From the IMG/VR virus record IMGVR_UViG_3300045988_144944: a DNA stretch of 43,243 bases; one strand, 5' to 3'. The notes beneath the pieces were generated by a model. The model had not been told where the DNA came from and ran no database searches. It saw only the letters and a program-made list of their open reading frames with translations. The position numbers and the translations under genes are program-made. The stretch's first letter is position 1, and the number at the start of each line of letters is the position of its first letter. Positions 1-43,243 of this stretch are shown here, one piece after another. Origin of the DNA: a virus.

Positions 1-188
1 TACCAAAAGAATAGCTTATTATTTAATGCTAATTAACAAAAAGTTTTGCTTGGGGGGGGCAAAAGTTATTATTTTGATCGAATTTTCGATTTAAGGAACT
101 TTCTTCAGACTGCTTGGCATCTTATCCAGATAAAAAAGAAAGTGCCTTAAAAGGCAAAAAAAATAAGCCCGGATAACTCCGAGCTTAT
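1..188 (-). repeat. Intergenic cassette copy A. It is truncated by the window start and is the continuation of copy E at the window end. Terminator-type upstream end, agcat patch allele.
   Basis: Bases 1-144 are identical to 43100-43243. Bases 1-188 align with 31788-31972 (copy C) apart from the 5-nt patch, one SNP and an A8 versus A7 run. Confidence 0.9.
156..186 (-). terminator. Rho-independent terminator ending the late (structural/lysis) unit
   Basis: Minus strand reads AAGCTCGGAGTTATCCGGGCTT, a 9-bp stem with one mismatch and a GTTA loop, followed by ATTTTTTTT. The same hairpin recurs after ssb at 31941-31970. Confidence 0.75.
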
Positions 189-4018: not shown

Positions 4019-4900
4019 TTAATATATATTAAAGTCGTTATTAAAGTCGTTATTAAAGTCGTTATTAAAGTCGCCGCTATTCGGCATTAAATAACCTCTG
4101 CCAATCTTTTTAACCACTGTATTTGTTTGGAACTCAACAGTGACACTTGCTAAATTACCTTGCGTTTGCCACTGTGGAGTTATTAAGAAGCTATCGCAAT
4201 TATATACTTCCCCATATTTATCAGTAATCTGAATGTGATCTGCCATTCGTATCAACCTCATCACATCGCAAAGGTATTCAGGAGCTAAAATAACAAATTT
4301 ATAAGTCTTTTCAGATATTTGTTTTTCCGGAAAAAAGAAGCCATTCCTATCTTCTCCTTCTTCTTCAAATTCGTAATCAGGCTTTCCAAGCTCTGCACAC
4401 AAATATAAAATATTCCTGAATAAGGGATTTTTGTAAACTATTTGCCCGTTATCAAAAATAACATTTTCATCATCGTACCATTCCAATTTTAAATAGCCTT
4501 CGACACTATTTACAACTGTAAATACTTCCGAATAAATAATATCATCTCCCGTATTAAAGGTTATGTAATACATGCCTTCGCTTATCTTTAAATCCATAAC
4601 AACATTACCCGGATAAACAATAACATCATAACCGAATTGTTCAAATTCCACAAGCTGCAAGCCCGTTCTTTCAACTTCCGAAGTTATGTCTTTTATGTGC
4701 TTTCCATTTTTGTCATATAGATTTATTTCAGGAACATAAGTAATACTATGCTCTCTAATTATTTGAAAGGGGGGCAAAAAATTATTCAAACAATATAACG
4801 GATAAACTTCTCCGTACGAATAACTTCTCCTGCTGTATTGCATGTCCCTTTTTTCATAGAAGGGGAGAACACTTAAATTGTTGTTTTTATTCTGTATCAT
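4019..4900 (-). CDS. Tail/baseplate-associated hypothetical protein with a C-terminal (DFNN)x4 repeat
   Basis: 293-aa ORF between two large tail genes. It overlaps the upstream ORF, and its C-terminus reads GDFNNDFNNDFNNDFNIY. Confidence 0.5.
   Translation of the reverse strand: MIQNKNNNLSVLPFYEKRDMQYSRRSYSYGEVYPLYCLNNFLPPFQIIREHSITYVPEINLYDKNGKHIKDITSEVERTGLQLVEFEQFGYDVIVYPGNVVMDLKISEGMYYITFNTGDDIIYSEVFTVVNSVEGYLKLEWYDDENVIFDNGQIVYKNPLFRNILYLCAELGKPDYEFEEEGEDRNGFFFPEKQISEKTYKFVILAPEYLCDVMRLIRMADHIQITDKYGEVYNCDSFLITPQWQTQGNLASVTVEFQTNTVVKKIGRGYLMPNSGDFNNDFNNDFNNDFNIY
4028..4075 (-). repeat. 12-bp tandem repeat x4 (attaaagtcgtt on plus) encoding DFNN units
   Basis: Three perfect copies plus one variant copy are read directly at the 3' end of CDS 4019-4900. 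Confidence 0.9.
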
Positions 4901-7688
4901 ATTTTAACGTTGCTTCTACTGTTAACGAATTAATTCTTAGCTTAATACTTTCTACTTGACCGTTGCCCAAACCCGTTTTAACTAATTGCATAGGGTTAAT
5001 TTTGGTAGGTGCAGGATAAATTACTGTTTGCTTCTTTTTTCTTTCTATTCCATAAACATACGATTTTTCTTTGTTTATTAGAACATCCGTTGCGGGTAAA
5101 TTATATGTCCAATAAAGCGGATGAAGGCTTGCAAAAGACATATAACCATTTTGTAACGTGTAATCTCCGCCGTCAATGCGCATTTCTACAAATGGCAATT
5201 GCCATGTATCTATAACGTTTAAATTGGTTATTTTGAATTTTTGTACACCTGAACAATAAAAGCCAAAAGTAGCCGCATCTCCCGGTATCTGAACGCTTAA
5301 ATTTAATTGATTTCCACCTCCGGCAATGTCTATTCTTGATTGATAACCCAGATCAGCACCAGAAGAATTAAAAAAGTGCACCCTTAAAAATCCAGATGCT
5401 TCGGCAACACAATTACCAATTATCAACGCTTTGTGTCCTCTGTATAGAGAATTAATTTCGTATGTTGGCGTTGAATAACCGCCGCTTTCATATTGATTTT
5501 GCGAGCCGTAACCGAACGAGTCTGGGTTTGTCATTGCGTTCGGCGATATAGCCGCCATTATAACAAATCCGTCGTCGCTAAAAGCACTGGGATTTAAAAG
5601 CATCATATCTATATCCGAAGAAAAATTCGACACATTTACTTCTTCTATTTTACCGGCGGTTACATATTTCGACAAAATTTCAATTGGATAGCCTTCAAAT
5701 ATTTGCGAAACTTCGTCCATCCAAGAAAATTGAAATCTCTCTGCCATGTCTATTTTGTCGAATTTCCAACTATTTGTGCCGAACACATACTTTTTACCAT
5801 TCCGAACATTTTCTATTTCCGTTAAATCAACGTTTATTATCGGAAAGTAAGAATAAGAGCCACCATTTCTAAACCACTGTATATGCTCTATTTTAAACTT
5901 GTTATCTTCTATATACCAATAACATTGAAAACAATTCTTTAGCATGTTTGTAAACGACTGCAAAGTAATTGTTCCTCGCTGTGCGGGCGTTTGATATTCC
6001 CCAGCCAAAATGTTTGTTTTTTGAGTAACAAATAGATCAAAAATTAAGTTTGAAATCGGGTTTTTTTCGCTATATAAGAACTTGCTATATTCTTCAGTAC
6101 CTTCATGTTTTATTTCTGGAGCTATTTCTTTTAAAAGAACTGAAATGCAAGACCATAAAGGGTAAGCATCTTTCAACGTATAAGGAGACCTACCATTCGC
6201 CTCTATATATTTGTCTGAAAAAGCAAAATCAAACCAAATAGACACATAACGCCAATTTGATTGTGAAATAGGATAGAATTTTTGCCCGTATAAGGTATAA
6301 GGCGGTAAAAAATATCTCCCATTATCTGACTTCCCCCATTCTGTCGGCTCATCCGAAAACCTTGCAGAAATTTCGGCAATGTCTATCGCATAACCTAAAC
6401 AATAATGATAATTTCTATTATTCCCAACTATATCATCGCCGCTTAAGGGATAGGTTGCAATGCCTAAAATACTACTTACATCTAACAAATACCTCACATA
6501 AATGTTATATGTTTTCAATGAACAATGCGCTACACCTGTTGCAAATCCCGAAAAAGGCGACATATCAAAGTTTATATTATCTACACTTTCTCCGGGCGAA
6601 AGGCTCTTAACATAACCGAAAATAGGCACTTTATCAGATGTTCTTTGAATAGTAGCTGTAATTGAAAAATTGGCTGAATAGTTTATATAACATTCATAAC
6701 CGTTACTGTTTTCTGGGTATAAATAACCTGTATAACTACCACCAGAAAGAACATTCATTTTACCACTGTATACGCCTGAACAATCTGAAGGAGTACCTTC
6801 AACAGTTATGTTTATTTCGTTCAAAACATTACATAGCGCAAAATGGAATGTGTTAACAAGCGCATTTTTATCCCCATTCGGCGAAACATCTTGCTCCCAA
6901 TTTCCCCCCCCCAAGAAGCAAGAAATAATACTCTCTCCGGGCAAATAAACCTGAATTAAAGGTCTTTTATATACAGTTATTCTTTCTATCGCCGGAGCAA
7001 GTTCTATCAAGTTGTATTCTTTTTCCATTCCTGCCAGAACATCGTTATATTGGTCGTAAACATCCGGCTGCACGGTTATCATTTCATCATCGGCATTAAA
7101 TTCGCAATCTGTTTTCATGAACTTACCGATAAAAGCATTCTCCCAAGTCAACCTATTATCTTCTGACTTGAAAATATAGAAATAGAAAATAGTATCGAAA
7201 GTCTTATCATCGATAAAATGATAATCTTGTTTTAACAATGAAATTTTTCCAGATAATTTTTGCCTATAAAAATTCTGACTTGTTTCTAACTCATAGGTAA
7301 TACTAAAATCATCGTTATATACCGGAAATACTTGTTTTATAGCATATATTTCTAACCCATTCTCCTGCAGATAATAATCTCTAATCACTGAAATTCTCGC
7401 ATATACAGCCCCTTTGGGAGTCATTACGTAACCGCTTGCTCCGTGTCCGTCAGCAATTCCATCAATATAATTGTAATTTTCATCATAAAAAGCCCCAGCA
7501 AATATAGAATTAATCATTAAACACATACTTCCGGAAACATCCATGTAATCAGTAGAATTAAAGCCAACATGCACCTGTAATTCTCCTGTACTTTCATTTA
7601 CAGAATAATCTACTTTATTCCCAGAAGCATTGTAATCAAAAAGATTTTTACTTTTTGTGTTTATACCAAATTTATAATAAGGGTTCAT
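4887..7688 (-). CDS. Large distal tail protein (Tal/host-recognition candidate)
   Basis: 933-aa ORF immediately after the tape measure, with a 4-nt ATGA overlap. The call rests on position and size only. Confidence 0.5.
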   Translation of the reverse strand: MNPYYKFGINTKSKNLFDYNASGNKVDYSVNESTGELQVHVGFNSTDYMDVSGSMCLMINSIFAGAFYDENYNYIDGIADGHGASGYVMTPKGAVYARISVIRDYYLQENGLEIYAIKQVFPVYNDDFSITYELETSQNFYRQKLSGKISLLKQDYHFIDDKTFDTIFYFYIFKSEDNRLTWENAFIGKFMKTDCEFNADDEMITVQPDVYDQYNDVLAGMEKEYNLIELAPAIERITVYKRPLIQVYLPGESIISCFLGGGNWEQDVSPNGDKNALVNTFHFALCNVLNEINITVEGTPSDCSGVYSGKMNVLSGGSYTGYLYPENSNGYECYINYSANFSITATIQRTSDKVPIFGYVKSLSPGESVDNINFDMSPFSGFATGVAHCSLKTYNIYVRYLLDVSSILGIATYPLSGDDIVGNNRNYHYCLGYAIDIAEISARFSDEPTEWGKSDNGRYFLPPYTLYGQKFYPISQSNWRYVSIWFDFAFSDKYIEANGRSPYTLKDAYPLWSCISVLLKEIAPEIKHEGTEEYSKFLYSEKNPISNLIFDLFVTQKTNILAGEYQTPAQRGTITLQSFTNMLKNCFQCYWYIEDNKFKIEHIQWFRNGGSYSYFPIINVDLTEIENVRNGKKYVFGTNSWKFDKIDMAERFQFSWMDEVSQIFEGYPIEILSKYVTAGKIEEVNVSNFSSDIDMMLLNPSAFSDDGFVIMAAISPNAMTNPDSFGYGSQNQYESGGYSTPTYEINSLYRGHKALIIGNCVAEASGFLRVHFFNSSGADLGYQSRIDIAGGGNQLNLSVQIPGDAATFGFYCSGVQKFKITNLNVIDTWQLPFVEMRIDGGDYTLQNGYMSFASLHPLYWTYNLPATDVLINKEKSYVYGIERKKKQTVIYPAPTKINPMQLVKTGLGNGQVESIKLRINSLTVEATLKYDTE

Positions 7689-19116: not shown

Positions 19117-19659
19117 TTATTTTTTCTCTTTTGCTTTCTCTTTTGCTTCTGTATCAGGCAAAATTCCGGCTGCTTTCTCTTTTGCTTCTGTATCAGGCAA
19201 AATTCCGGCTGCTTTCTCTTTTGCTTCTGTATCAGGCAAAATTCCGGCTGCTTTCTCTTTTGCTTCTGTATCAGGCAAAATTCCGGCTGCTTTCAATTCC
19301 GCTAAAATTTCAGCCTTTAAAGCTTCTTTTTCTGCTGCCTTTTGTTCGGCTATTCTTTTTTCTTTTGCTTCCTTGATTTTAGCTTCATTGTTTTTTAACC
19401 ACTCTGTTGGGTCGTGGAGAATATCCACTGTATAACCTTGCTTTTTCAAGTTATGCAACAAAAAGTTGTCAAATGATTTCTTACCGAAAACCTGTAATCT
19501 TGGTTTACTCATCCTTTCCCCTGTTTCGGCATTAAATTTTTTTACTTCTATCCGGCAATGATACAAATGTTCTTCTCCTTCCGGAACAACGAAATTTTCA
19601 GGCGTAATATCCAAAATTTTCGTCACATTTTTAGTTTTTGTTTTCTCTCGCATAGTCAA
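19117..19659 (-). CDS. Hypothetical protein with a C-terminal 4x13-aa repeat (AAGILPDTEAKEK)
   Basis: 180-aa ORF overlapping the end of the portal gene. It has a globular N-terminal half, a K/E/A-rich helix, and then four identical 13-aa units. Confidence 0.55.
   Translation of the reverse strand: MTMREKTKTKNVTKILDITPENFVVPEGEEHLYHCRIEVKKFNAETGERMSKPRLQVFGKKSFDNFLLHNLKKQGYTVDILHDPTEWLKNNEAKIKEAKEKRIAEQKAAEKEALKAEILAELKAAGILPDTEAKEKAAGILPDTEAKEKAAGILPDTEAKEKAAGILPDTEAKEKAKEKK
19134..19289 (-). repeat. 39-bp tandem repeat x4, perfect
   Basis: The unit ctttctcttttgcttctgtatcaggcaaaattccggctg is read four times head to tail on the plus strand. Confidence 0.9.
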
Positions 19660-22407: not shown

Positions 22408-22710
22408 CTAATAATTCGCTATTCTTTGTTTAGTATTTGCTACAAAAGTTTTATTTGAACCTTTGATATTGATTTCTCCCAAGTTCTCCCAATCTCCATT
22501 TGCCCATGTCTTTGTTATACAAGAGCCTTTATATTTATCAAGATTGGCTTTAATGAGTTTCTTTGCCGTTGCAAGGGAGTAAAATGTAAATGTATCTTTC
22601 CATTCCTCACATTCAACATCACATTCCCACTTTCCCAACTCTTTGTTAAATCTATCTCCTATATAAGTGATCCTTATAGGTTCAGTAAAATAAACTGTAT
22701 ATTGTTTCAT
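22408..22710 (-). CDS. Hypothetical protein
   Basis: 100-aa ORF, the second gene after cassette B. Confidence 0.5.
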   Translation of the reverse strand: MKQYTVYFTEPIRITYIGDRFNKELGKWECDVECEEWKDTFTFYSLATAKKLIKANLDKYKGSCITKTWANGDWENLGEINIKGSNKTFVANTKQRIANY

Positions 22711-22716
22711 TGTCTT

Positions 22717-23001
22717 TTAAAATTCGATATTATTTTCAATAGCTGCACAAGCGATAACCCAAACTTGTTTGTCAGAAACAAAAGCAACTTGCCTATTGTA
22801 AGGGTTCATTTTGCTATCTATTGTTTTAGCTACATTCGAAGCGAAAACATTTAATTTTATTACGCTATCTAAAAGAGTTGATAACTTGTTGAATGCTATT
22901 TCAAAAAATGATCTATTATTTACATCTGTGTTAGCATACAATTTAATTTCATTTGCCAAATTTTGCGCTCTCTTGTAATCTTCAGTTCCTTTCGTAATCA
23001 T
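22717..23001 (-). CDS. Hypothetical protein (start revised to the ATG at 23001)
   Basis: The track ORF starts at a TTG (23043) that is the last 3 nt of the -7 promoter box. The first ATG is residue 15 (MITKG...), about 40 nt downstream of the box. Confidence 0.5.
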   Translation of the reverse strand: MITKGTEDYKRAQNLANEIKLYANTDVNNRSFFEIAFNKLSTLLDSVIKLNVFASNVAKTIDSKMNPYNRQVAFVSDKQVWVIACAAIENNIEF

Positions 23002-23027
23002 ATCTTTATTTTTTATTGTTATTGTTT

Positions 23028-23222
23028 TATTTTGATATGACAAATATACAGCTTATTTTTATTCTACCAAAAGAATAGCTTATTATTTAGTATCAATTAA
23101 CAAAAAGTTTTGCTTGGGGGGGGCAAAAGTTATTATTTTGATCGAATTTTCGATTTAAGGAACTTTCTTCAGACTGCTTGGCATCTTATCCAAAAGAAAA
23201 AGAAAGTGCCGGAAATAGGCTA
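23028..23222 (-). repeat. Intergenic cassette copy B (read-through-type upstream end, gatac patch allele)
   Basis: It aligns base for base with 36046-36240 except for the 5-nt patch and two SNPs. It contains the TAG stop codon of terL at 23220-23222. Confidence 0.9.
23041..23071 (-). promoter_or_regulatory. Bacteroidetes-type promoter (TTTG-N19-TATATTTG) driving the structural/lysis unit
   Basis: Plus caaa at 23068-23071 is the -33 TTTG. Plus caaatata at 23041-23048 is the -7 TATATTTG. The spacer is 19 nt. Confidence 0.75.
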
Positions 23223-24791
23223 ATTTATTCTCTTTATACCTCTACGCTCTCTCCCGTATGGATATATATTATTATCTGCTATTTCTTTTTCATATATGCC
23301 TGTTAGCCCGTCTTCCGGGTCATCGTGCTTATTAGCTTTAAAATCCCTTAGAAACGTTGTTACATGCTCGTAAAAGGTCTTAAATCTCGTTTCCCAACCG
23401 AAAGGCATAATTATATATTGGTTAACCATTGCCGAGCTTGTTATTATCCTGCTCTCTTTATTTCCCTTTTGATAAAAAGGACAAGTCAATGATTTTATTT
23501 TCCTTTTGATAACCTTTTCAAAGCCACTCCCGCCGTTATTACTTTCAACCCATGTTTTTTGCACTCCATTCCTGTTGATTAAGTTAGGTATAGTTACTGT
23601 TGTTATCTCTGTACTTTCATCTGTCATTTCTATATCTGTTATCAAAGCAAATAACAAAGGCTCAAATTTTTTCTTCCTCTCATTGTACACAGAATTCTCC
23701 GACATATATATGTCATAAGTAGCGGCAAATAATAAATCATTCCCTTCATCCGCAACATCAATATAACAACCTGTACGAATGTATTTGCCAAAATCATTTT
23801 TATCTATCCACGTTTTAAAAGGTTGATATAACCTTCCTTCTGTTGAGCCGGGATTACCTTGAAACAGACACTGAAATTGTATAGGGTCTAACAATCGATG
23901 ACTTTCCAATTTCTTTTTACTGTGCCTTTCTTCCCACAATGCCTCACCTTCTTCTCTTGGGTCTATTTCCGTTTTTTCCCCAGATTTAAGACCTTCAAAA
24001 TTTATTCTAACCCATGCCCCCTCCGGAATATCATTTATATCGCCCCAACTTTTTATATCAATTATCTTTTCGCCGCTTTTTTCTATACGCCCAATAAGAT
24101 CATCTTCGTTCCAACGAGTAAAAACTATAAGCTCTTGGCTATTATTATGCAACCTTGCCCGAACAACCGATGTGTACCACTTCCACGCTGCATCTCTAAT
24201 AATTGGGCTATTACCTTCGGAATAATCTTTATAAACATCATCTAATATCGAAATATCAACTGTTTTCGAAGTCAATGCACCACCTCTACCAACAACACGT
24301 AAAGAACCTTTATGTCCTACTATTTCGATAACATCGCTATTTCTCAAATAATTATTTGCAAGTGTAACGACATTTGAGCCATTCAAATAAGTTTCTGGAA
24401 AAACTTTTCTATATCTGTCAGTATCGATTATCCTCTGAACATCTCGGTTAAAATCTCTCGCTATTGTTGCGGCATAGGAACATATACAAATTTTCAAGTC
24501 AGGGTTTATTCCCAATAAAAAGGCAGGCAATTTTCTACTTGAACCTTCCGATTTTCCATGCTGCGGAGGCTGCTGTACGATCATCTTTTTTATTTTGCCA
24601 TGTGCAAACAAGTCTAATAGTTTATAATATACCTCGTGAAAAGGTTTAACTTCCATTTCTGGAGACATATAACGAGAAAACGATAAAAGTCGCTTTCTCG
24701 CCGCACTTAATATCAACTTTTCAGGATCATTTTTAACCCTATCATAAATATTTATATATTCCTTTTTATGTCCCATTTTTAAGATTTTCAA
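23220..24791 (-). CDS. terL: Terminase large subunit
   Basis: 523 aa with a Walker A-like QQPPQHGKSE and a Walker B-like VDISILDDVY, followed by a C-terminal nuclease-sized domain. It lies downstream of a TerS-like ORF. Confidence 0.8.
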   Translation of the reverse strand: MKILKMGHKKEYINIYDRVKNDPEKLILSAARKRLLSFSRYMSPEMEVKPFHEVYYKLLDLFAHGKIKKMIVQQPPQHGKSEGSSRKLPAFLLGINPDLKICICSYAATIARDFNRDVQRIIDTDRYRKVFPETYLNGSNVVTLANNYLRNSDVIEIVGHKGSLRVVGRGGALTSKTVDISILDDVYKDYSEGNSPIIRDAAWKWYTSVVRARLHNNSQELIVFTRWNEDDLIGRIEKSGEKIIDIKSWGDINDIPEGAWVRINFEGLKSGEKTEIDPREEGEALWEERHSKKKLESHRLLDPIQFQCLFQGNPGSTEGRLYQPFKTWIDKNDFGKYIRTGCYIDVADEGNDLLFAATYDIYMSENSVYNERKKKFEPLLFALITDIEMTDESTEITTVTIPNLINRNGVQKTWVESNNGGSGFEKVIKRKIKSLTCPFYQKGNKESRIITSSAMVNQYIIMPFGWETRFKTFYEHVTTFLRDFKANKHDDPEDGLTGIYEKEIADNNIYPYGRERRGIKRIN

Positions 24792-28597: not shown

Positions 28598-29896
28598 TCA
28601 ACTTCTGAAATTAAATGAATATTCTTCTTTGGTAAATGGGGATAATGAAGCGATCGCTTCTATTGCATCATTATATTGAGGATCTACTCCAACAAGATAA
28701 TTAGTCCCGGTTGATGGGCAAGTCATCTTCACCCATGCCATAGGATCATCGCCAAGCTCGGGAAAAGTCTCTTTTGTTTTCAAAAGTTCTACTGTCTCTA
28801 TATCCCCGTTAGCATGATGTATTGTATTTGTATCTGTTATTTCCGCTCCTAACAGGTTTATTATACCTTCTGCCCCTAAAACCTCATATATCGCCCCTTT
28901 TATATCCAAGTTTTTCTCCTGTAAAAATTGATCCTTTATTATTGAATCTTTATTTTCTACTACCCATTTGGGTATTGGCCTGCCGTTAATAAAATAATAC
29001 GAACTTCCATCCCTGAATTTTACTGCCGCTGTAGAGGTGGAATGTAAACGCCCTTGCGAATTTAGTTCAACATATATCGGAGGCTGAATGGCAAAGACAC
29101 AATTATCAAATTCATACGCATTAAATACCCCTGATTTTAGTATCTTTTTATATTGTTTAAAATTAAAATTATCAAGGATGTTTATTTTCTCAAAGAAATC
29201 ATAAAATGATATCCTTCCATAATTAGATAAACCTATATATGAAGAATAACTGTGAAATATGTTGACAGAATCCCAGACAGAAGCCCCGACAGAAGCCCAG
29301 ACAGAATCCCCGACAGAATCCCCGACAGAATCCCAGACAGAAGCCCAGACAGAATCCCCGACAGAATCCCCGACAGAAGCCCTGACAGAATCCCTGACAG
29401 AATCCCAGACAGAATCCCAGACAGAAGCCCTGACAGAATCCCAGACAGAAGCCTCGACAGAAGCCCAGACAGAATCCCAGACAGAATCCCCGACAGAAGC
29501 CCTGACAGAATCCCAGACAGAATCCCAGACAGAATCCCCGACAGAAGCCCTGACAGAATCCCTGACAGAAGCCTCGACAGAATCCCAGACAGAAGCCCCG
29601 ACAGAAGCCTCGACAGAAGACCGAATAGAAGAACCTAATTCATCTTTAATCAACTTATTTAATTTTTTATCTTTGAGAATAGCAATAGTAATTAGACAGC
29701 TTATCCAACTGTCGCAATACACTACCTTCGGTTTTGGCTTGTGAAGAAGATCTGTATATAACCATTCAATCCCCTCTTCAAACATCGTTTTGTCTATCCC
29801 CTTTTGATTCTTTACGTTATCAAAAAACAGGTTGATCCATTCATCTCGCGTCTGGAGCATTAATTTTTTTTGCTCTTCGGTTAGTTTTTCCAACAT
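28598..29896 (-). CDS. Tetrapeptide-repeat protein: 30 units of (W/G/R/E)(D/A)SV between globular N- and C-terminal domains
   Basis: 432 aa. The central 120 residues are a strict 4-aa periodic array. The C-terminal part (GRLHSTSTAAVKFRDGSSYYFINGRPIPKWVV) resembles a widespread domain of unknown function that I recall as DUF6745-like; this was not checked. Confidence 0.7.
   Translation of the reverse strand: MLEKLTEEQKKLMLQTRDEWINLFFDNVKNQKGIDKTMFEEGIEWLYTDLLHKPKPKVVYCDSWISCLITIAILKDKKLNKLIKDELGSSIRSSVEASVGASVWDSVEASVRDSVRASVGDSVWDSVWDSVRASVGDSVWDSVWASVEASVWDSVRASVWDSVWDSVRDSVRASVGDSVGDSVWASVWDSVGDSVGDSVWASVGASVWDSVNIFHSYSSYIGLSNYGRISFYDFFEKINILDNFNFKQYKKILKSGVFNAYEFDNCVFAIQPPIYVELNSQGRLHSTSTAAVKFRDGSSYYFINGRPIPKWVVENKDSIIKDQFLQEKNLDIKGAIYEVLGAEGIINLLGAEITDTNTIHHANGDIETVELLKTKETFPELGDDPMAWVKMTCPSTGTNYLVGVDPQYNDAIEAIASLSPFTKEEYSFNFRS
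29264..29623 (-). repeat. 12-bp tandem repeat x30 (plus-strand unit GACAGAA[T/G]CCNN)
   Basis: The array is read directly. Seven to eight of the 12 positions are invariant, and variation is limited to three or four positions of the unit. Confidence 0.95.
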
Positions 29897-31761: not shown

Positions 31762-31792
31762 CAAATATACAGCTTATTTTTATTCTACCAAA
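31762..31792 (-). promoter_or_regulatory. Bacteroidetes-type promoter (TTTG-N19-TATATTTG) driving the accessory/terminase unit
   Basis: Plus caaatata at 31762-31769 and caaa at 31789-31792, with a 19-nt spacer. Confidence 0.75.
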
Positions 31793-31940
31793 AGAATAGC
31801 TTATTATTTAGTATCAATTAACAAAAAGTTTTGCTTGGGGGGGGCAAAAGTTATTATTTTGATCGAATTTTCGATTTAAGGAACTTTCTTCAGACTGCTT
31901 GGCATCTTATCCAGATAAAAAAGAAAGTGTCTTAAAAGGC

Positions 31941-31970
31941 AAAAAAATAAGCCCGGATAACTCCGAGCTT
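31941..31970 (-). terminator. Rho-independent terminator ending the early units, 2 nt after the ssb stop
   Basis: Same hairpin as at 156-186 (AAGCTCGGAGTTATCCGGGCTT), followed by ATTTTTTT on the minus strand. Confidence 0.75.
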
Positions 31971-36045: not shown

Positions 36046-36240
36046 TATTTTGATATGACAAATATACAGCTTATTTTTATTTTACCAAAAGAATAGCTTA
36101 TTATTTAATGCTAATTAACAAAAAGTTTTGCTTGGGGGGGGCAAAAGTTATTATTTTGATCGAATTTTCGATTTAAGGAACTTTCTTCAGACTGCTTGGT
36201 ATCTTATCCAAAAGAAAAAGAAAGTGCCGGAAATAGGCTA
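36046..36240 (-). repeat. Intergenic cassette copy D (read-through-type upstream end, agcat patch allele)
   Basis: It aligns with copy B over 195 bp. It contains the TAG stop of the methyltransferase gene at 36238-36240. Its two private SNPs are c>t in the promoter spacer and c>t in gcttggYatc. Confidence 0.9.
36059..36089 (-). promoter_or_regulatory. Bacteroidetes-type promoter (TTTG-N19-TATATTTG)
   Basis: Plus caaatata at 36059-36066 and caaa at 36086-36089, with a 19-nt spacer. Confidence 0.75.
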
Positions 36241-37939: not shown

Positions 37940-38823
37940 AATTGTATCTCCTCTTTACACATTAATTCAAAAACACGCTTTATTTCTTTTCTTCTCGCTA
38001 TTTTATAAACAAGGTTATCTAATTCTTTACATTCCTTGCCAACATTCCGAACATAGGCTGCTGTAAATTTATTAACCAACCCGGACGAAGCTCTACTTAA
38101 AAATTCGCAAAAAGCCTCTTTTCTATCTTCTTCTTTATCAAGATTTATACCTTCGGAGAGACCTCTCCGACATAACCATTCATAAACAAACATTTCATCG
38201 AAAAAATCAAGCTCAAAAACACCTTTGTATTTAAATTTAAGGAACACATGACGGCATCTATTTTTTATATTTTCGCTTTCTTTTACGTTACTTATAAGCT
38301 TATTTTCAGACTTATTTAACTTGTTATAAACATGTGATATTACACTGTTTTTTTTCGCTAAATAAGCGTTTAAAACACGTGAAAAATAATCAATGTTGAA
38401 ATTCTGGTAATGGCTTTTATCTGCATTTCCTGCCTTGTCTTTCGGTAAATAGTTATTTAATTCCCCTATCAACAAAAATTCAAAAGCAATTTTTATTTCG
38501 CTTAATGATAGTGTAGAAAAATATTTTTTTAACATGTCTAACAACCTCGTACAAGTGTACGACCAAATACTCACATCATCTGGTATATTATACCCAACAT
38601 CGAAAGCTATATAGCGAAAAAGGCTTCTTGTTTTTTCAATGAGAACATTATCTGGAATTTCTGCAATTGGCGTTTTAACAGATGCATTTAGTATTTGTTT
38701 CTCTATGCTTGAACAAACGTTATATTTTGCATCATAGTTAACAATTTTTCTTCTTACATCGATAGCCTTAATATTTCCGCTATTATTCCTGAATAAAGTT
38801 ATATCACTCATTTTCAAAATCAT
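37936..38823 (-). CDS. Hypothetical protein; possible replisome-loading partner of the initiator, by position only
   Basis: 295-aa ORF overlapping the end of the initiator-like gene. No Walker motif was seen. Confidence 0.3.
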   Translation of the reverse strand: MILKMSDITLFRNNSGNIKAIDVRRKIVNYDAKYNVCSSIEKQILNASVKTPIAEIPDNVLIEKTRSLFRYIAFDVGYNIPDDVSIWSYTCTRLLDMLKKYFSTLSLSEIKIAFEFLLIGELNNYLPKDKAGNADKSHYQNFNIDYFSRVLNAYLAKKNSVISHVYNKLNKSENKLISNVKESENIKNRCRHVFLKFKYKGVFELDFFDEMFVYEWLCRRGLSEGINLDKEEDRKEAFCEFLSRASSGLVNKFTAAYVRNVGKECKELDNLVYKIARRKEIKRVFELMCKEEIQL

Positions 38824-39721
38824 TTAAAAAATCCATTGCGCCAACGACATTTATTTTTTTACCTTCATGTTTAAAATCTTGCTTTAAATGCAACTTTCCT
38901 CTTTCAGAATCTCCCCTAATGAAATTTCTAATTGTTGCAACCCAACCCCTCTTTGTCCTCTTTACGCCTTGCTTCGTGTCTGACCAATCGCACACAGCGT
39001 TAAAGTAGTAGATTAAATCTATTTTTTTGAACTCCTCACCATTGAACATTTTTTCAAAATCTGAAAAATCCGGCTTGCCATTTTCATTTTTAACGCTTTT
39101 GTAAACTTCCGAATTTCGAAAAATGGTTGTTCTTTCTTTTATTTCTTTTTCGTGCGTTATGGTGCAAATTTCATTTGCGCCATTATTATTTATAGTATCT
39201 ATATTTATAGTATCTATATTATATGGAGTTACGTTTTGTAACCCGCTCTGGGTTACGTTTTGTAACCCGCTCTGGGTTACGTTTTGTAACCCGCTCTGGG
39301 TTACGTTTTGTAACCCGCTCTGGGTTACGTTTTGTAACCCGCTCTGGGTTACGTTTTGTAACCCGCTCTGGGTTACGTTTTGTAACCCGCTCTGGGTTAC
39401 GTTTTGTAACCCGCTCTGGGTTACATTTTGTTCGTCTAAAGAGTCATAATTGAACCTATAAAAGCATTTCTTTACAGCCGCATTAACATGCTTCTCGTAT
39501 TTTTCAATTATTCCCGCTTCGACTAATTTTTTCAACTTGCAGATAACATTCTTTCTATCTATCCCCACCCAATCGGCAATATAATCGATAGAGCCATTAA
39601 ACCAGGCATTTCCTTCTTGTGTGTGTCCGAGAATAAGAGCTGTTATTAACAGCTCACTATTTTTCAATTTAAGCTTATTTCTTAAATATCCCGGAACAAT
39701 CAAATAACTTTCATCTCTCAT
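38804..39721 (-). CDS. Replication initiator-like protein (N-terminal winged HTH, internal 8x GLQNVTQS repeat)
   Basis: The N-terminus (LITALILGHTQ...GSIDYIADWVGIDRKNVICKLKKLVEAGII) looks like a wHTH. The gene body contains the iteron array, an arrangement analogous to lambda O and its ori. Confidence 0.55.
   Translation of the reverse strand: MRDESYLIVPGYLRNKLKLKNSELLITALILGHTQEGNAWFNGSIDYIADWVGIDRKNVICKLKKLVEAGIIEKYEKHVNAAVKKCFYRFNYDSLDEQNVTQSGLQNVTQSGLQNVTQSGLQNVTQSGLQNVTQSGLQNVTQSGLQNVTQSGLQNVTQSGLQNVTPYNIDTINIDTINNNGANEICTITHEKEIKERTTIFRNSEVYKSVKNENGKPDFSDFEKMFNGEEFKKIDLIYYFNAVCDWSDTKQGVKRTKRGWVATIRNFIRGDSERGKLHLKQDFKHEGKKINVVGAMDFLNDFENE
39191..39220. repeat. AT-rich 15-bp direct repeat x2 (tatagtatctatatt), a possible DNA unwinding element
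   Basis: Two perfect copies lie 7 nt from the iteron array. Confidence 0.6.
39228..39443. repeat. Iteron array: 8 perfect 24-bp repeats plus one degenerate copy (putative origin of replication)
   Basis: The unit gttacgttttgtaacccgctctgg is read eight times head to tail at 39228-39419. Each unit contains the dyad GTTAC-N5-GTAAC. A ninth copy at 39420-39443 is diverged. Confidence 0.6.
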
Positions 39722-39762: not shown

Positions 39763-40464
39763 TTATTTGTTCAAAATATTATTCTTGAAAGAATCTTTTA
39801 ATTTATTAACATTGTCCTCGCTTTCATTCGGAACAATAGACACTATCGGGTAAACACTCTTATCATCTGGCTTTTGAGAAGTCGCAAATTTAACATTCAT
39901 ATCAAAAATAATTCCTTTAACAAACCCTCTCCCGTTCAACATCTCATCAAAAACATTTCTAATATTGGGAATAGAGGATAAATAACCTTTTGTTTCAAAA
40001 CTCCATAATCCTATTACTCCCCTAATTAAGGGAATTAAAAAATTTATTTTTAATGTAATATCCCAACCTTTATAATCATTTTTTGCCTTTCTATTCGGAT
40101 ATTTTTCAGAAATAATTTCCATTATATCGGGATATTTCGCAATTGAAATTTCCGAATACTTTTGCCCCCCCCAAACATTAAAAATTTCACCGTCACCGAA
40201 AGCAATTAATTTTCCTTTATCATCCCGGTATTCGTATCTTTCAATACATGCTTCCTTAGCATCATCAGAAATAAAAACAATTTGAATGGTATTAGGCTTA
40301 TCTCCGTAAACCCTTTTAAAAAGCTCGGAGTACTTGCCAGAAGGAACAAAATAATCAACTCCTTTCGGATAGCCTTTCTCCGTTTTTATTCCAACTTTTA
40401 TTTTTCCGATAATCGGGAAAGACAATCTTTCTTCTGCAACATTTCTTTTTATCCTTCCATTCAT
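39763..40464 (-). CDS. Hypothetical protein; candidate single-strand annealing partner of the exonuclease, by position only
   Basis: 233-aa ORF with a 4-nt overlap with the exonuclease gene. No motif was confidently recognised. Confidence 0.3.
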   Translation of the reverse strand: MNGRIKRNVAEERLSFPIIGKIKVGIKTEKGYPKGVDYFVPSGKYSELFKRVYGDKPNTIQIVFISDDAKEACIERYEYRDDKGKLIAFGDGEIFNVWGGQKYSEISIAKYPDIMEIISEKYPNRKAKNDYKGWDITLKINFLIPLIRGVIGLWSFETKGYLSSIPNIRNVFDEMLNGRGFVKGIIFDMNVKFATSQKPDDKSVYPIVSIVPNESEDNVNKLKDSFKNNILNK

Positions 40465-43074: not shown

Positions 43075-43243
43075 ACAAATATACAGCTTATTTTTATTCT
43101 ACCAAAAGAATAGCTTATTATTTAATGCTAATTAACAAAAAGTTTTGCTTGGGGGGGGCAAAAGTTATTATTTTGATCGAATTTTCGATTTAAGGAACTT
43201 TCTTCAGACTGCTTGGCATCTTATCCAGATAAAAAAGAAAGTG
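43075..43243 (-). repeat. Intergenic cassette copy E (same genomic copy as A across the circular or terminal junction)
   Basis: 43100-43243 is identical to 1-144. The core is identical to the other copies, and it carries the agcat patch allele. Confidence 0.9.
43076..43106 (-). promoter_or_regulatory. Bacteroidetes-type promoter (TTTG-N19-TATATTTG) driving the early unit
   Basis: Plus caaatata at 43076-43083 and caaa at 43103-43106, with a 19-nt spacer. Confidence 0.75.

Follow-up and report, generated by a model that had tools for sequence, protein, structure and literature searches.

A conserved sequence module joined to predicted host-type promoters recurs at four operon starts of an IMG/VR phage genome and across other phages

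Does the upstream half of a repeated intergenic cassette in the virus genome IMGVR_UViG_3300045988_144944 hold several separate regulatory devices, or the parts of a single one? The question is raised by positions 23108–23207 of this record (the window, i.e. the whole stretch of 43,243 bp that was analyzed; 33.6% G+C, all plausible genes on the minus strand), in which the first-pass annotation had described a hairpin with a homopolymeric G8/C8 loop (element i), an inverted repeat likened to a dimeric-regulator operator (element ii), and an 8-bp inverted repeat (element iii). Comparison across phages indicates that these are not separate devices but parts of one previously undescribed non-coding module, widespread in gut Bacteroidales phages and fused here to a host-type promoter, with the G8 loop and the perfect palindrome of element ii as local embellishments. 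The broader expectation of a conserved, structured regulatory platform beside operon boundaries is supported by the same comparison.

On the plus strand, element i pairs TTTTGC (23108–23113) with GCAAAA (23123–23128) around TTGGGGGGG; element ii reads ATCGAA-TT-TTCGAT (23141–23154), including two TCGA sites (23142, 23150) and overlapping one GATC site (23140); and element iii joins ACTTTCTT (23162–23169) to AAGAAAGT (23200–23207) across a 30-nt spacer. These coordinates, as first annotated, proved exact, and all three elements are identical in all four copies of the cassette, the spacer of element iii differing by copy type as had been reported (CAGATAAA in copies A and C, CAAAAGAA in copies B and D). 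In dinucleotide shuffles of the segment, the three inverted repeats had p values of 0.11, 0.32 and 0.44 singly and of 0.018 jointly. Single inverted repeats are within chance for such AT-rich DNA, and their real support is comparative.

The window ends in an exact 144-nt overlap (1–144 = 43100–43243), indicating a circular contig with both ends inside a cassette; the end cassettes A and E are consequently a single physical copy, which leaves four copies (A/E, B, C and D), not five. True genome termini or a direct terminal repeat at this cassette were considered and rejected, as the overlap is a circular-contig self-overlap and the module occupies arbitrary contig positions in relatives. A covariance model built from the module alignment returned exactly these four copies (69–72 bits, minus strand) and no other match in the window. 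On the transcribed (minus) strand, each cassette runs from the stop codon of the upstream gene through a small hairpin (P0), a helix formed by element iii (P1), a conserved box, a dyad (element i), an AT-rich stretch and a promoter to an ATG. A strong terminator (13-bp stem plus T-run) follows the upstream stop codon in copies A and C only, whereas copies B and D have none and are of a read-through type. Element ii is held by the stretch TTAAATCGAAAATTCGATCAAAATAATAAC, between the 3′ arm of P1 and TTTTGC-C7AA-GCAAAA. The module and its promoter stand at four operon starts: those of the early genes, the recombination/SSB genes, the ASCH-to-terminase block, and the structural genes.

The large terminase gene (23220–24776) encodes a protein with 72–75% identity to six homologs from cultured phages, namely C1_85S2P and BKO1-3 of Bacteroides, PDS1 and PD491P1 of Parabacteroides, AS73P1 of Alistipes and TCUEAP2 of Elizabethkingia. 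This relatedness points to a siphophage of a Bacteroidota host, most likely a member of the Bacteroidales. A blastn search of the cassette against cultured phages gave no match and exact-pattern scans retrieved only two near-identical contigs; homology emerged only via synteny and pattern scans. Synteny located a single homologous region in each of C1_85S2P, PDS1, PD491P1 and BKO1-3, where it separates the final gene of the lysis module from the first early gene and so matches copy A/E in position; AS73P1 likewise has a single copy at its lysis-to-early junction. The pattern TTAAATCGAAAATT-N(4–12)-AATAAC matched at least 120 viral contigs, and with further scans the collection grew to at least 167 instances in 30 sequence groups from viral and metagenome contigs. 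Among 185,579 species genomes scanned with a pattern also requiring AAATAAC, there were 4 matches, all in contigs of metagenome-assembled genomes (MAGs) that resemble phage genomes. This near-absence from species genomes implies that the module is phage-carried, and an origin in host chromosomes (an att site or a host regulon) was rejected on the same count. Rfam 15 yielded 0 matches in the whole window and only noise (E ≥ 0.44) in 22900–23350, and a search of the literature on the motif found nothing describing the module. An all-against-all comparison of the flanking open reading frames (ORFs) recovered only the synteny of the main family (an 81-aa first early protein, phrog_32997) and nothing common to unrelated contexts.

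Anchoring 29 representatives on the 14-mer TTAAATCGAAAATT revealed upstream features that had been absent from the search patterns. The layout has hardly any indels over 87 nt, and the sequences flanking it are otherwise unrelated. Upstream of the 14-mer it comprises a T-rich tract (–45 to –40), a GGATAAnTTAnC box (–33 to –21), which always lies 27 nt from the 14-mer, and rAAAGnnGC (–10 to –1); the 14-mer itself is followed by C, five variable bases, and AAAATAACT. The module is always oriented with the genes. In the Flavobacteriales phage TCUEAP2 (L186), positions 22740–23060 present the same architecture (terminator, small hairpin, AAAATAAC, a CTTTGG-TT-CCAAAA dyad, and promoter) with a different 14-mer, a deviation hinting that the box may follow the host clade.

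In copy B, the 5′ arm of P1 (element iii) on the transcribed strand is ACTTTCTT (23207–23200) and the 3′ arm AAGAAAGT (23169–23162), corresponding in the general layout to the T-rich tract after P0 and to the AAAG block, respectively. Other phages carry different arms in the same register, e.g. GCCGTTTTC/GAAAACGGC in L166, GATTTTCTCCTGCG/CGCAGGAGAAAGTC in L172, and a 15-bp pairing of GCGCGTTTCGTTTGT with ACGAGCGAAACGCGC in L076. The compensatory changes that the first-pass annotation had proposed to look for were found, in fixed register, in 22 diverse relatives aligned with MAFFT (the alignment not being fitted to structure), using an 11-pair helix and 500 shuffles. Pairing reached 74% of cells against 64% in shuffles (0/500), with slid controls at 44–58%; double-sided changes occurred in 10 of the 11 pairs (1/500 shuffles); and the covariation score of 0.371, compared with 0.210, was attained by none of the 500 shuffles. 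The 5′ arms likewise fitted their own sequences better than arms swapped between sequences (p = 0.00015). When both strands of copy B were folded, the sense RNA had z = –2.3 relative to shuffles and the antisense strand z = –0.09. Comparison thus indicates that element iii is a conserved helix, with data that fit either strand and RNA or DNA.

In element ii, what relatives conserve is the asymmetric 14-mer together with AAATAAC at a fixed distance of 6 nt, and the perfect 6+6 palindrome (14 bp) occurs only in the lineage of the window, where N6 is CGATCA; elsewhere, the right arm reads TTCCAA, TTTCAA, TTCGAC or TTCGCC. N6 starts with CG in 14 of 29 groups, generating the partial dyad CGAAAATTCG. 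With the full palindrome specific to one lineage and only a partial dyad in those groups, the reading as an operator for a dimeric regulator is weakened. The window encodes two N6/N4 methyltransferases, and methylation at the TCGA and GATC sites had been suggested to affect the element; both sites are ordinary throughout the genome (98 TCGA, observed/expected 0.92; 66 GATC, 0.78), which renders this link unspecific. A pseudoknot of N6 with the loop, or pairing of N6 with positions –4 to –1, was dismissed since inspection by eye yielded no consistent complement. Other palindromic 4-mers are strongly avoided in the whole window (CTAG, 1 against ~50 expected; GGCC, 4 against 53; CGCG, 2 against 27), which suggests selection against particular host restriction systems.

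Element i had been regarded as terminator-like in both directions. Measured against the usual form of an intrinsic terminator (a G+C-rich stem of at least 5 bp, a short loop and a U-tract directly after), a search of 22900–23350 around copy B found no terminator-like site, and on the transcribed strand the hairpin amounts to –3.0 kcal/mol, with only 2 G-C pairs in its stem and a 9-nt loop; the claim did not hold. The dyad at this position reads CTTTTG(G)-AA(C)-CCAAAA(A)C in relatives and TTTGG-GAA-CCAAA, TTTGC-GGGGA-GC(C)AAA or CTTTG-AAAACAGC-CAAAG in deeper variants; that of TCUEAP2 is CTTTGG-TT-CCAAAA. As loop lengths differ, precluding a column-wise test, each sequence was folded separately, and the hairpins of relatives mostly fell between 0 and –1.2 kcal/mol (mean z –0.28). 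By this comparison the dyad is conserved as sequence and negligible as a hairpin, and the C8/G8 loop is an insertion, specific to this lineage, that interrupts the conserved TTTTG(G)-AAC-CAAAA. All five G8 runs on the plus strand lie inside cassettes; the strand otherwise has 12 G4 runs and a single G6. The G8 length is found in all four window copies and in 2/3 related copies; a lone G9 occurs in a near-identical contig, ~130 nt from the contig end.

Further homopolymers that could slip or be mis-called are a C9 run at 6904–6912 and a C8 run at 40165–40172 (plus strand; G9 and G8 on the coding strand), inside the ORFs 4887–7688 and 39763–40464. On the minus strand of 23108–23135, an ORF of 9 codons (TTG CCC CCC CCA AGC AAA ACT TTT TGT TAA; MPPPSKTFC*) begins with the TTG of hairpin i's 5′ arm. 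Its C8 run would be translated as a polyproline stall motif; relatives do not conserve this ORF, which is probably meaningless. A TTG-initiated mini-ORF as a constituent of the cassette was rejected because frames and lengths vary between families and shift with T-run length, and a peptide ending in the conserved box is ruled out in the window by a stop codon three codons upstream.

Downstream of the dyad, all four copies contain TTTG-N19-TATATTTG, a perfect match to the Bacteroides σABfr consensus (TTTG at about –33 and TAnnTTTG at –7, ~19–21 nt apart; PMC7366714) and hence a predicted promoter, with the ATG located 27–47 nt past the –7 box. A σABfr promoter inside the module itself was rejected, given that a –7 box (≥5/6 positions) upstream of the conserved box is missing in 28 of 30 groups. 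Across phages the module occurs in three contexts. Inside operons, it lies 0–12 nt before the start codons of varied genes, e.g. between portal and head morphogenesis genes, before the major tail gene, after DnaB, or before an integrase module. Elsewhere it stands behind terminators and upstream of a σABfr promoter, at 86–88 nt in the main families and the window and at 65, 57, 45 or 30 nt in others; the relatives' strong copy, between late/lysis-operon terminators and a σABfr early promoter, belongs here, and L066, L072 and L086 have two tandem module-promoter units each. Lastly, it is found downstream of a consensus promoter in L114/L179, with a weaker copy in the TerS operon leader of C1_85S2P, AS73P1, L012 and L006.

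Weak, diverged extra copies were seen in C1_85S2P (L019; 19556–19625 and 32150–32238) and AS73P1 (L185; 31580–31671), one of them following a perfect TTTG-N20-TAAATTTG promoter in the TerS (late) operon leader, and another overlapping the annotated start of a small coding sequence. The unrelated small phage L175/L179 (metagenome contig Ga0310697_10001487, 27 kb) carries at least five copies before different genes, one with a σABfr promoter starting 3 nt after AAATAAC and another with a promoter 14 nt upstream of the box.

Within the lineage of the window, a 1.1-kb insertion consists of cassette B and two small ORFs (22408–23001; 94 and 100 aa, neither with a family hit). It separates the terminase gene from a conserved 216-aa gene and is missing from all 13 terminase relatives, which have only a plain promoter at the same position; cassette C stands in place of the radical-SAM gene of C1_85S2P. 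Where the copies vary, they form a mosaic (ATGCT/GTATC against CAGATAAA/CAAAAGAA), the pattern expected from gene conversion. The related contig 3300045988_119061 starts and ends inside cassettes, the repeats evidently causing assemblies of this lineage to break there. Sequence comparison indicates that the lineage copied module and promoter as one unit to four operon starts. A miniature inverted-repeat transposable element was rejected as an explanation, there being no terminal inverted repeats. The parts of all four copies are listed in Table 1.

Table 1. Positions of the cassette parts in the window (part coordinates in the last column are given in the direction of transcription where descending)
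Feature	Position	Strand	Details
Copy B, P0	23208–23220	minus	degenerate small GC hairpin (GCCTATTTCCGGC) directly after the stop of the large terminase gene (TerL); homologous to the second terminator hairpin of relatives
Copy B, helix P1 (element iii)	23162–23207	minus	30-nt loop with GGATAA box, fixed 27 nt from the conserved box
Copy B, conserved box	23129–23158	minus	TTAAATCGAAAATT 23158–23145, N6 = CGATCA, AAAATAATAAC 23139–23129; contains palindrome ii
Copy B, AT-rich dyad/weak hairpin (element i)	23108–23128	minus	TTTTGC-CCCCCCCAA-GCAAAA on the transcribed strand
Copy B, predicted σABfr-type promoter	23041–23071	minus	TTTG-N19-TATATTTG; ATG 39 nt past the –7 box
Copy C	31762–31970	minus	69.1 bits; strong terminator 31970–31941, then P0-like hairpin
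Copy C, parts		minus	P1 31928–31883, conserved box 31879–31850, dyad 31849–31829, promoter 31792–31762
Copy D (read-through type)	36059–36238	minus	71.3 bits; P0 36238–36226, P1 36225–36180
Copy D, further parts		minus	conserved box 36176–36147, dyad 36146–36126, promoter 36089–36059
Copy A/E, window-end part	43076–43243	minus	promoter 43106–43076, dyad 43163–43143, box 43193–43164, P1 43242–43197
Copy A/E, window-start part	1–186	minus	72.4 bits; dyad 44–64, conserved box 65–94, P1 98–143, P0 144–155
Copy A/E, strong terminator	157–186		ends the lysis operon

Three unrelated repeat arrays were noted in the window. Nine tandem copies of a 24-nt unit (GTTACGTTTTGTAACCCGCTCTGG) at 39228–39443 lie inside an HTH_36/DnaD-like replication-initiator gene (38804–39721); they look like iterons and probably mark a replication origin. 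A 12-nt tandem array of ~30 registers at 29179–29694, inside the DUF6745-like ORF 28598–29896, would encode a 4-residue repeat, and four exact 39-nt tandem repeats (19132–19287) lie inside ORF 19117–19659, just downstream of a portal-like gene.

How might the module act? We tentatively favor, at somewhat less than an even chance, a cis-regulatory boundary or leader element that acts on the sense strand at the RNA level and is read by a factor of the host clade; here, RNA as the acting molecule, the identity of the factor, and the effect are what we infer beyond the homology, conservation, fixed geometry, P1 covariation, positions and co-duplication with the promoter described above. On this proposal the module would mark the boundary or start of an expression unit: P1 would fold in read-through RNA from the preceding cistron or operon, and a factor common to Bacteroidales hosts (serving elongation, processing or translation) would recognize the neighboring single-stranded box by its sequence. 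Transcripts would thereby be reset ahead of the next cistron or promoter, whether through processing, insulation or a switch to an elongation-competent state. RNA is favored by the covariation of P1, by the many copies in transcribed positions, and by copies B and D, which, lacking an upstream terminator, would be transcribed by read-through; the different box in TCUEAP2 within the same architecture is as expected for a host-clade-specific factor. The more specific proposal, that P1 and TTAAATCGAAAATT-N6-AAATAAC constitute an undescribed cis-element widespread in gut Bacteroidales phages and read by a conserved host factor for elongation, processing or translation start, is possible but doubtful at present.

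Several observations pull the other way. RNAalifold alone found no consensus structure in the module alignment, and P1 is marginal (z ~0) in the window phage's closest relatives, the two largest families. The gain in P1 pairing is confined to Watson–Crick pairs (154 observed vs. 125 expected; G-U 25 vs. 30), and fold z-scores across groups (sense –1.39, antisense –0.95; p = 0.12) reveal no overall strand preference. The commonest context, which includes copies A and C, places one or two terminators just upstream, so an RNA element would be starved of transcripts there. The distance from the start of the box to the –33 box is 86–87 nt in the window and 86–88 nt in 105 sequences, and this constancy, together with the indel-free geometry, looks more like a protein–DNA architecture. 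Most instances were retrieved with patterns containing the 14-mer, so part of its 'invariance' is built in by the search; of six relatives identified through synteny, three have the exact 14-mer, with variants being TTAAAATG.. in BKO1-3, CTAAAACG... in AS73P1 and TTAAAAGGATTTTT in TCUEAP2. Lastly, no partner or regulator protein was identified among window proteins or the flanking ORFs of relatives.

The main rival is a DNA-level upstream platform, which we consider nearly as likely as the RNA-level reading although itself still rather unlikely in absolute terms. The box, and perhaps the TTTTG..CAAAA dyad, would bind a host architectural protein, RNA polymerase alpha subunits or a phage regulator, such binding would activate, repress or insulate the σABfr promoter ~87 bp downstream, and P1 would be an inverted repeat in duplex DNA. 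Beyond the Watson–Crick-only complementarity, the missing strand bias, and the terminators upstream in most phages, this would fit the way in which the window keeps the box-to-promoter distance (the 7-nt C-tract insertion being offset elsewhere), the duplication of module and promoter as a unit here and in the tandem cases, the maintenance of dyad i as sequence rather than as a stable hairpin even in TCUEAP2, and A-tracts phased at ~10 bp in PDS1 and C1_85S2P. It is harder to reconcile with the many instances that have no downstream promoter and whose box abuts a start codon, with modules downstream of a promoter, with promoter distances of 30, 45, 57, 65 or 87 nt that share no helical phase across groups, and with A-tract phasing that is not significant in the window; moreover, protein half-sites 20–35 bp apart would hardly account for covariation of the arms between phages.

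The remaining explanations are less probable. An unconventional promoter for an alternative or phage-modified holoenzyme, with GGATAA at about –33, AAAG at about –7 and the box as 5′ leader, would in the window phage stand in tandem with, and upstream of, the σABfr promoter. Its attractions are a layout fixed over ~75 nt, the size of a polymerase footprint, with boxes ~33 and 6–9 nt upstream of the conserved box; a box-to-ATG distance of 28–40 nt that fits typical lengths of Bacteroides 5′ untranslated regions (PMC7366714); and L114/L179, where a consensus σABfr promoter occupies the same place and the leader is kept. Yet no σABfr –7 box precedes the conserved box in nearly all groups, no sigma factor or polymerase gene was recognized in the window, and the covarying 5′ arm would fall outside the transcript, making this improbable. 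We give about the same low credence to a recombination linker, i.e. a repeated terminator/promoter cassette persisting through modular gene shuffling, with an upstream half that has no function of its own. The inserted cassette B, the displaced radical-SAM gene at cassette C, the mosaic variants and broken assemblies all agree with it, as does the precedent of the promoter-early stem-loop (PeSL) cassettes (PMC2839356, PMC4122927), but the module is also conserved in single-copy relatives, so that repetition is not needed, and covariation and fixed geometry speak for selection on the module itself. Least probable of all is a set of three independent devices: a terminator working in both directions, with a G8 loop that slips (phase variation); an operator, sensitive to methylation, for a dimeric regulator; and a separate 8-bp hairpin. 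That the motifs recur in all copies, that one related contig has G9, that two methyltransferases are encoded, and that 14 of 29 groups retain the partial dyad would be in keeping with this view. It is countered by the weak hairpin with no terminator called, the uniformity of G8 in the window and in 2/3 related copies (the G9 copy lying beside a contig end), the lack of full palindrome and C-tract in relatives, and TCGA and GATC sites that are common genome-wide.

Bacteroidota use unusual promoters and translation signals without a Shine–Dalgarno sequence, and gene regulation in their Bacteroidales phages is almost unmapped. A module common to more than 150 phage loci would, if the more specific proposal of a widespread cis-element read by a host factor is true, represent a portable 'expression-unit start' signal, exchanged and amplified by phages. 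Its presence in the cultured phages PDS1, C1_85S2P, PD491P1, BKO1-3 and AS73P1 makes it directly testable, and a host factor exploited by phages could come to light in this way; the module could also supply parts for Bacteroides engineering and would aid the annotation of operon boundaries in gut viromes. In the window lineage, the quadruplicated cassette explains the assembly breaks and where the phage gains genes.

Among known systems, UP-like or curved-DNA/architectural promoter elements are comparable in that AT-rich tracts lie at a fixed distance upstream of a strong host-type promoter, with A-tracts phased at ~10 bp in relatives. The module differs in its distance of ~90–125 nt from the transcription start, farther upstream than UP elements usually lie, in having a box that also occurs without a promoter, and in showing no significant phasing in the window. 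The stoperators of mycobacteriophage L5, which reportedly occur ~30 times in a genome and belong to a single repressor or immunity group, share with the box an asymmetric site of ~13–14 bp, one orientation relative to transcription, and several occurrences per genome in short intergenic gaps near gene ends or starts; unlike them, the box has 1–5 copies per genome, recurs in phages that are not related, and is accompanied by a helix and a second box.

Nut/rrn antitermination sites (boxB hairpin plus boxA) and ops/RfaH or UpxY leaders (PMC7819879) likewise combine a variable, covarying hairpin with a conserved single-stranded box, depend on orientation, and occupy leaders or intercistronic gaps of long operons; in both, a host factor could read the conserved part. 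However, the module box resembles neither boxA nor ops, most copies lie upstream of a promoter and behind terminators, and no N-, Q- or NusG-like antiterminator gene or domain was detected among window proteins; the resemblance to a nut-type (boxA–boxB) antitermination site is thus one of architecture only, by analogy. The PeSL cassettes of T4-type phages consist of a σ70 promoter and a terminator stem-loop only (PMC2839356, PMC4122927). The window cassette adds a ~110-nt conserved module (P1, box and dyad) upstream of a promoter of the Bacteroides –33/–7 type, shares no sequence homology with PeSLs, and has a module that is also single-copy or promoterless in other phages. Both are short composite terminator/promoter cassettes that are repeated between genes of one phage genome, use a host-type promoter, and border variable gene modules, and by analogy the window cassettes, too, may promote recombination. 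With four copies, terminators in A and C, and an insertion at B, the cassettes of this genome appear, from their sequence arrangement, to be promoter-terminator units at the borders of variable modules, as expected of a PeSL-type mobile cassette.

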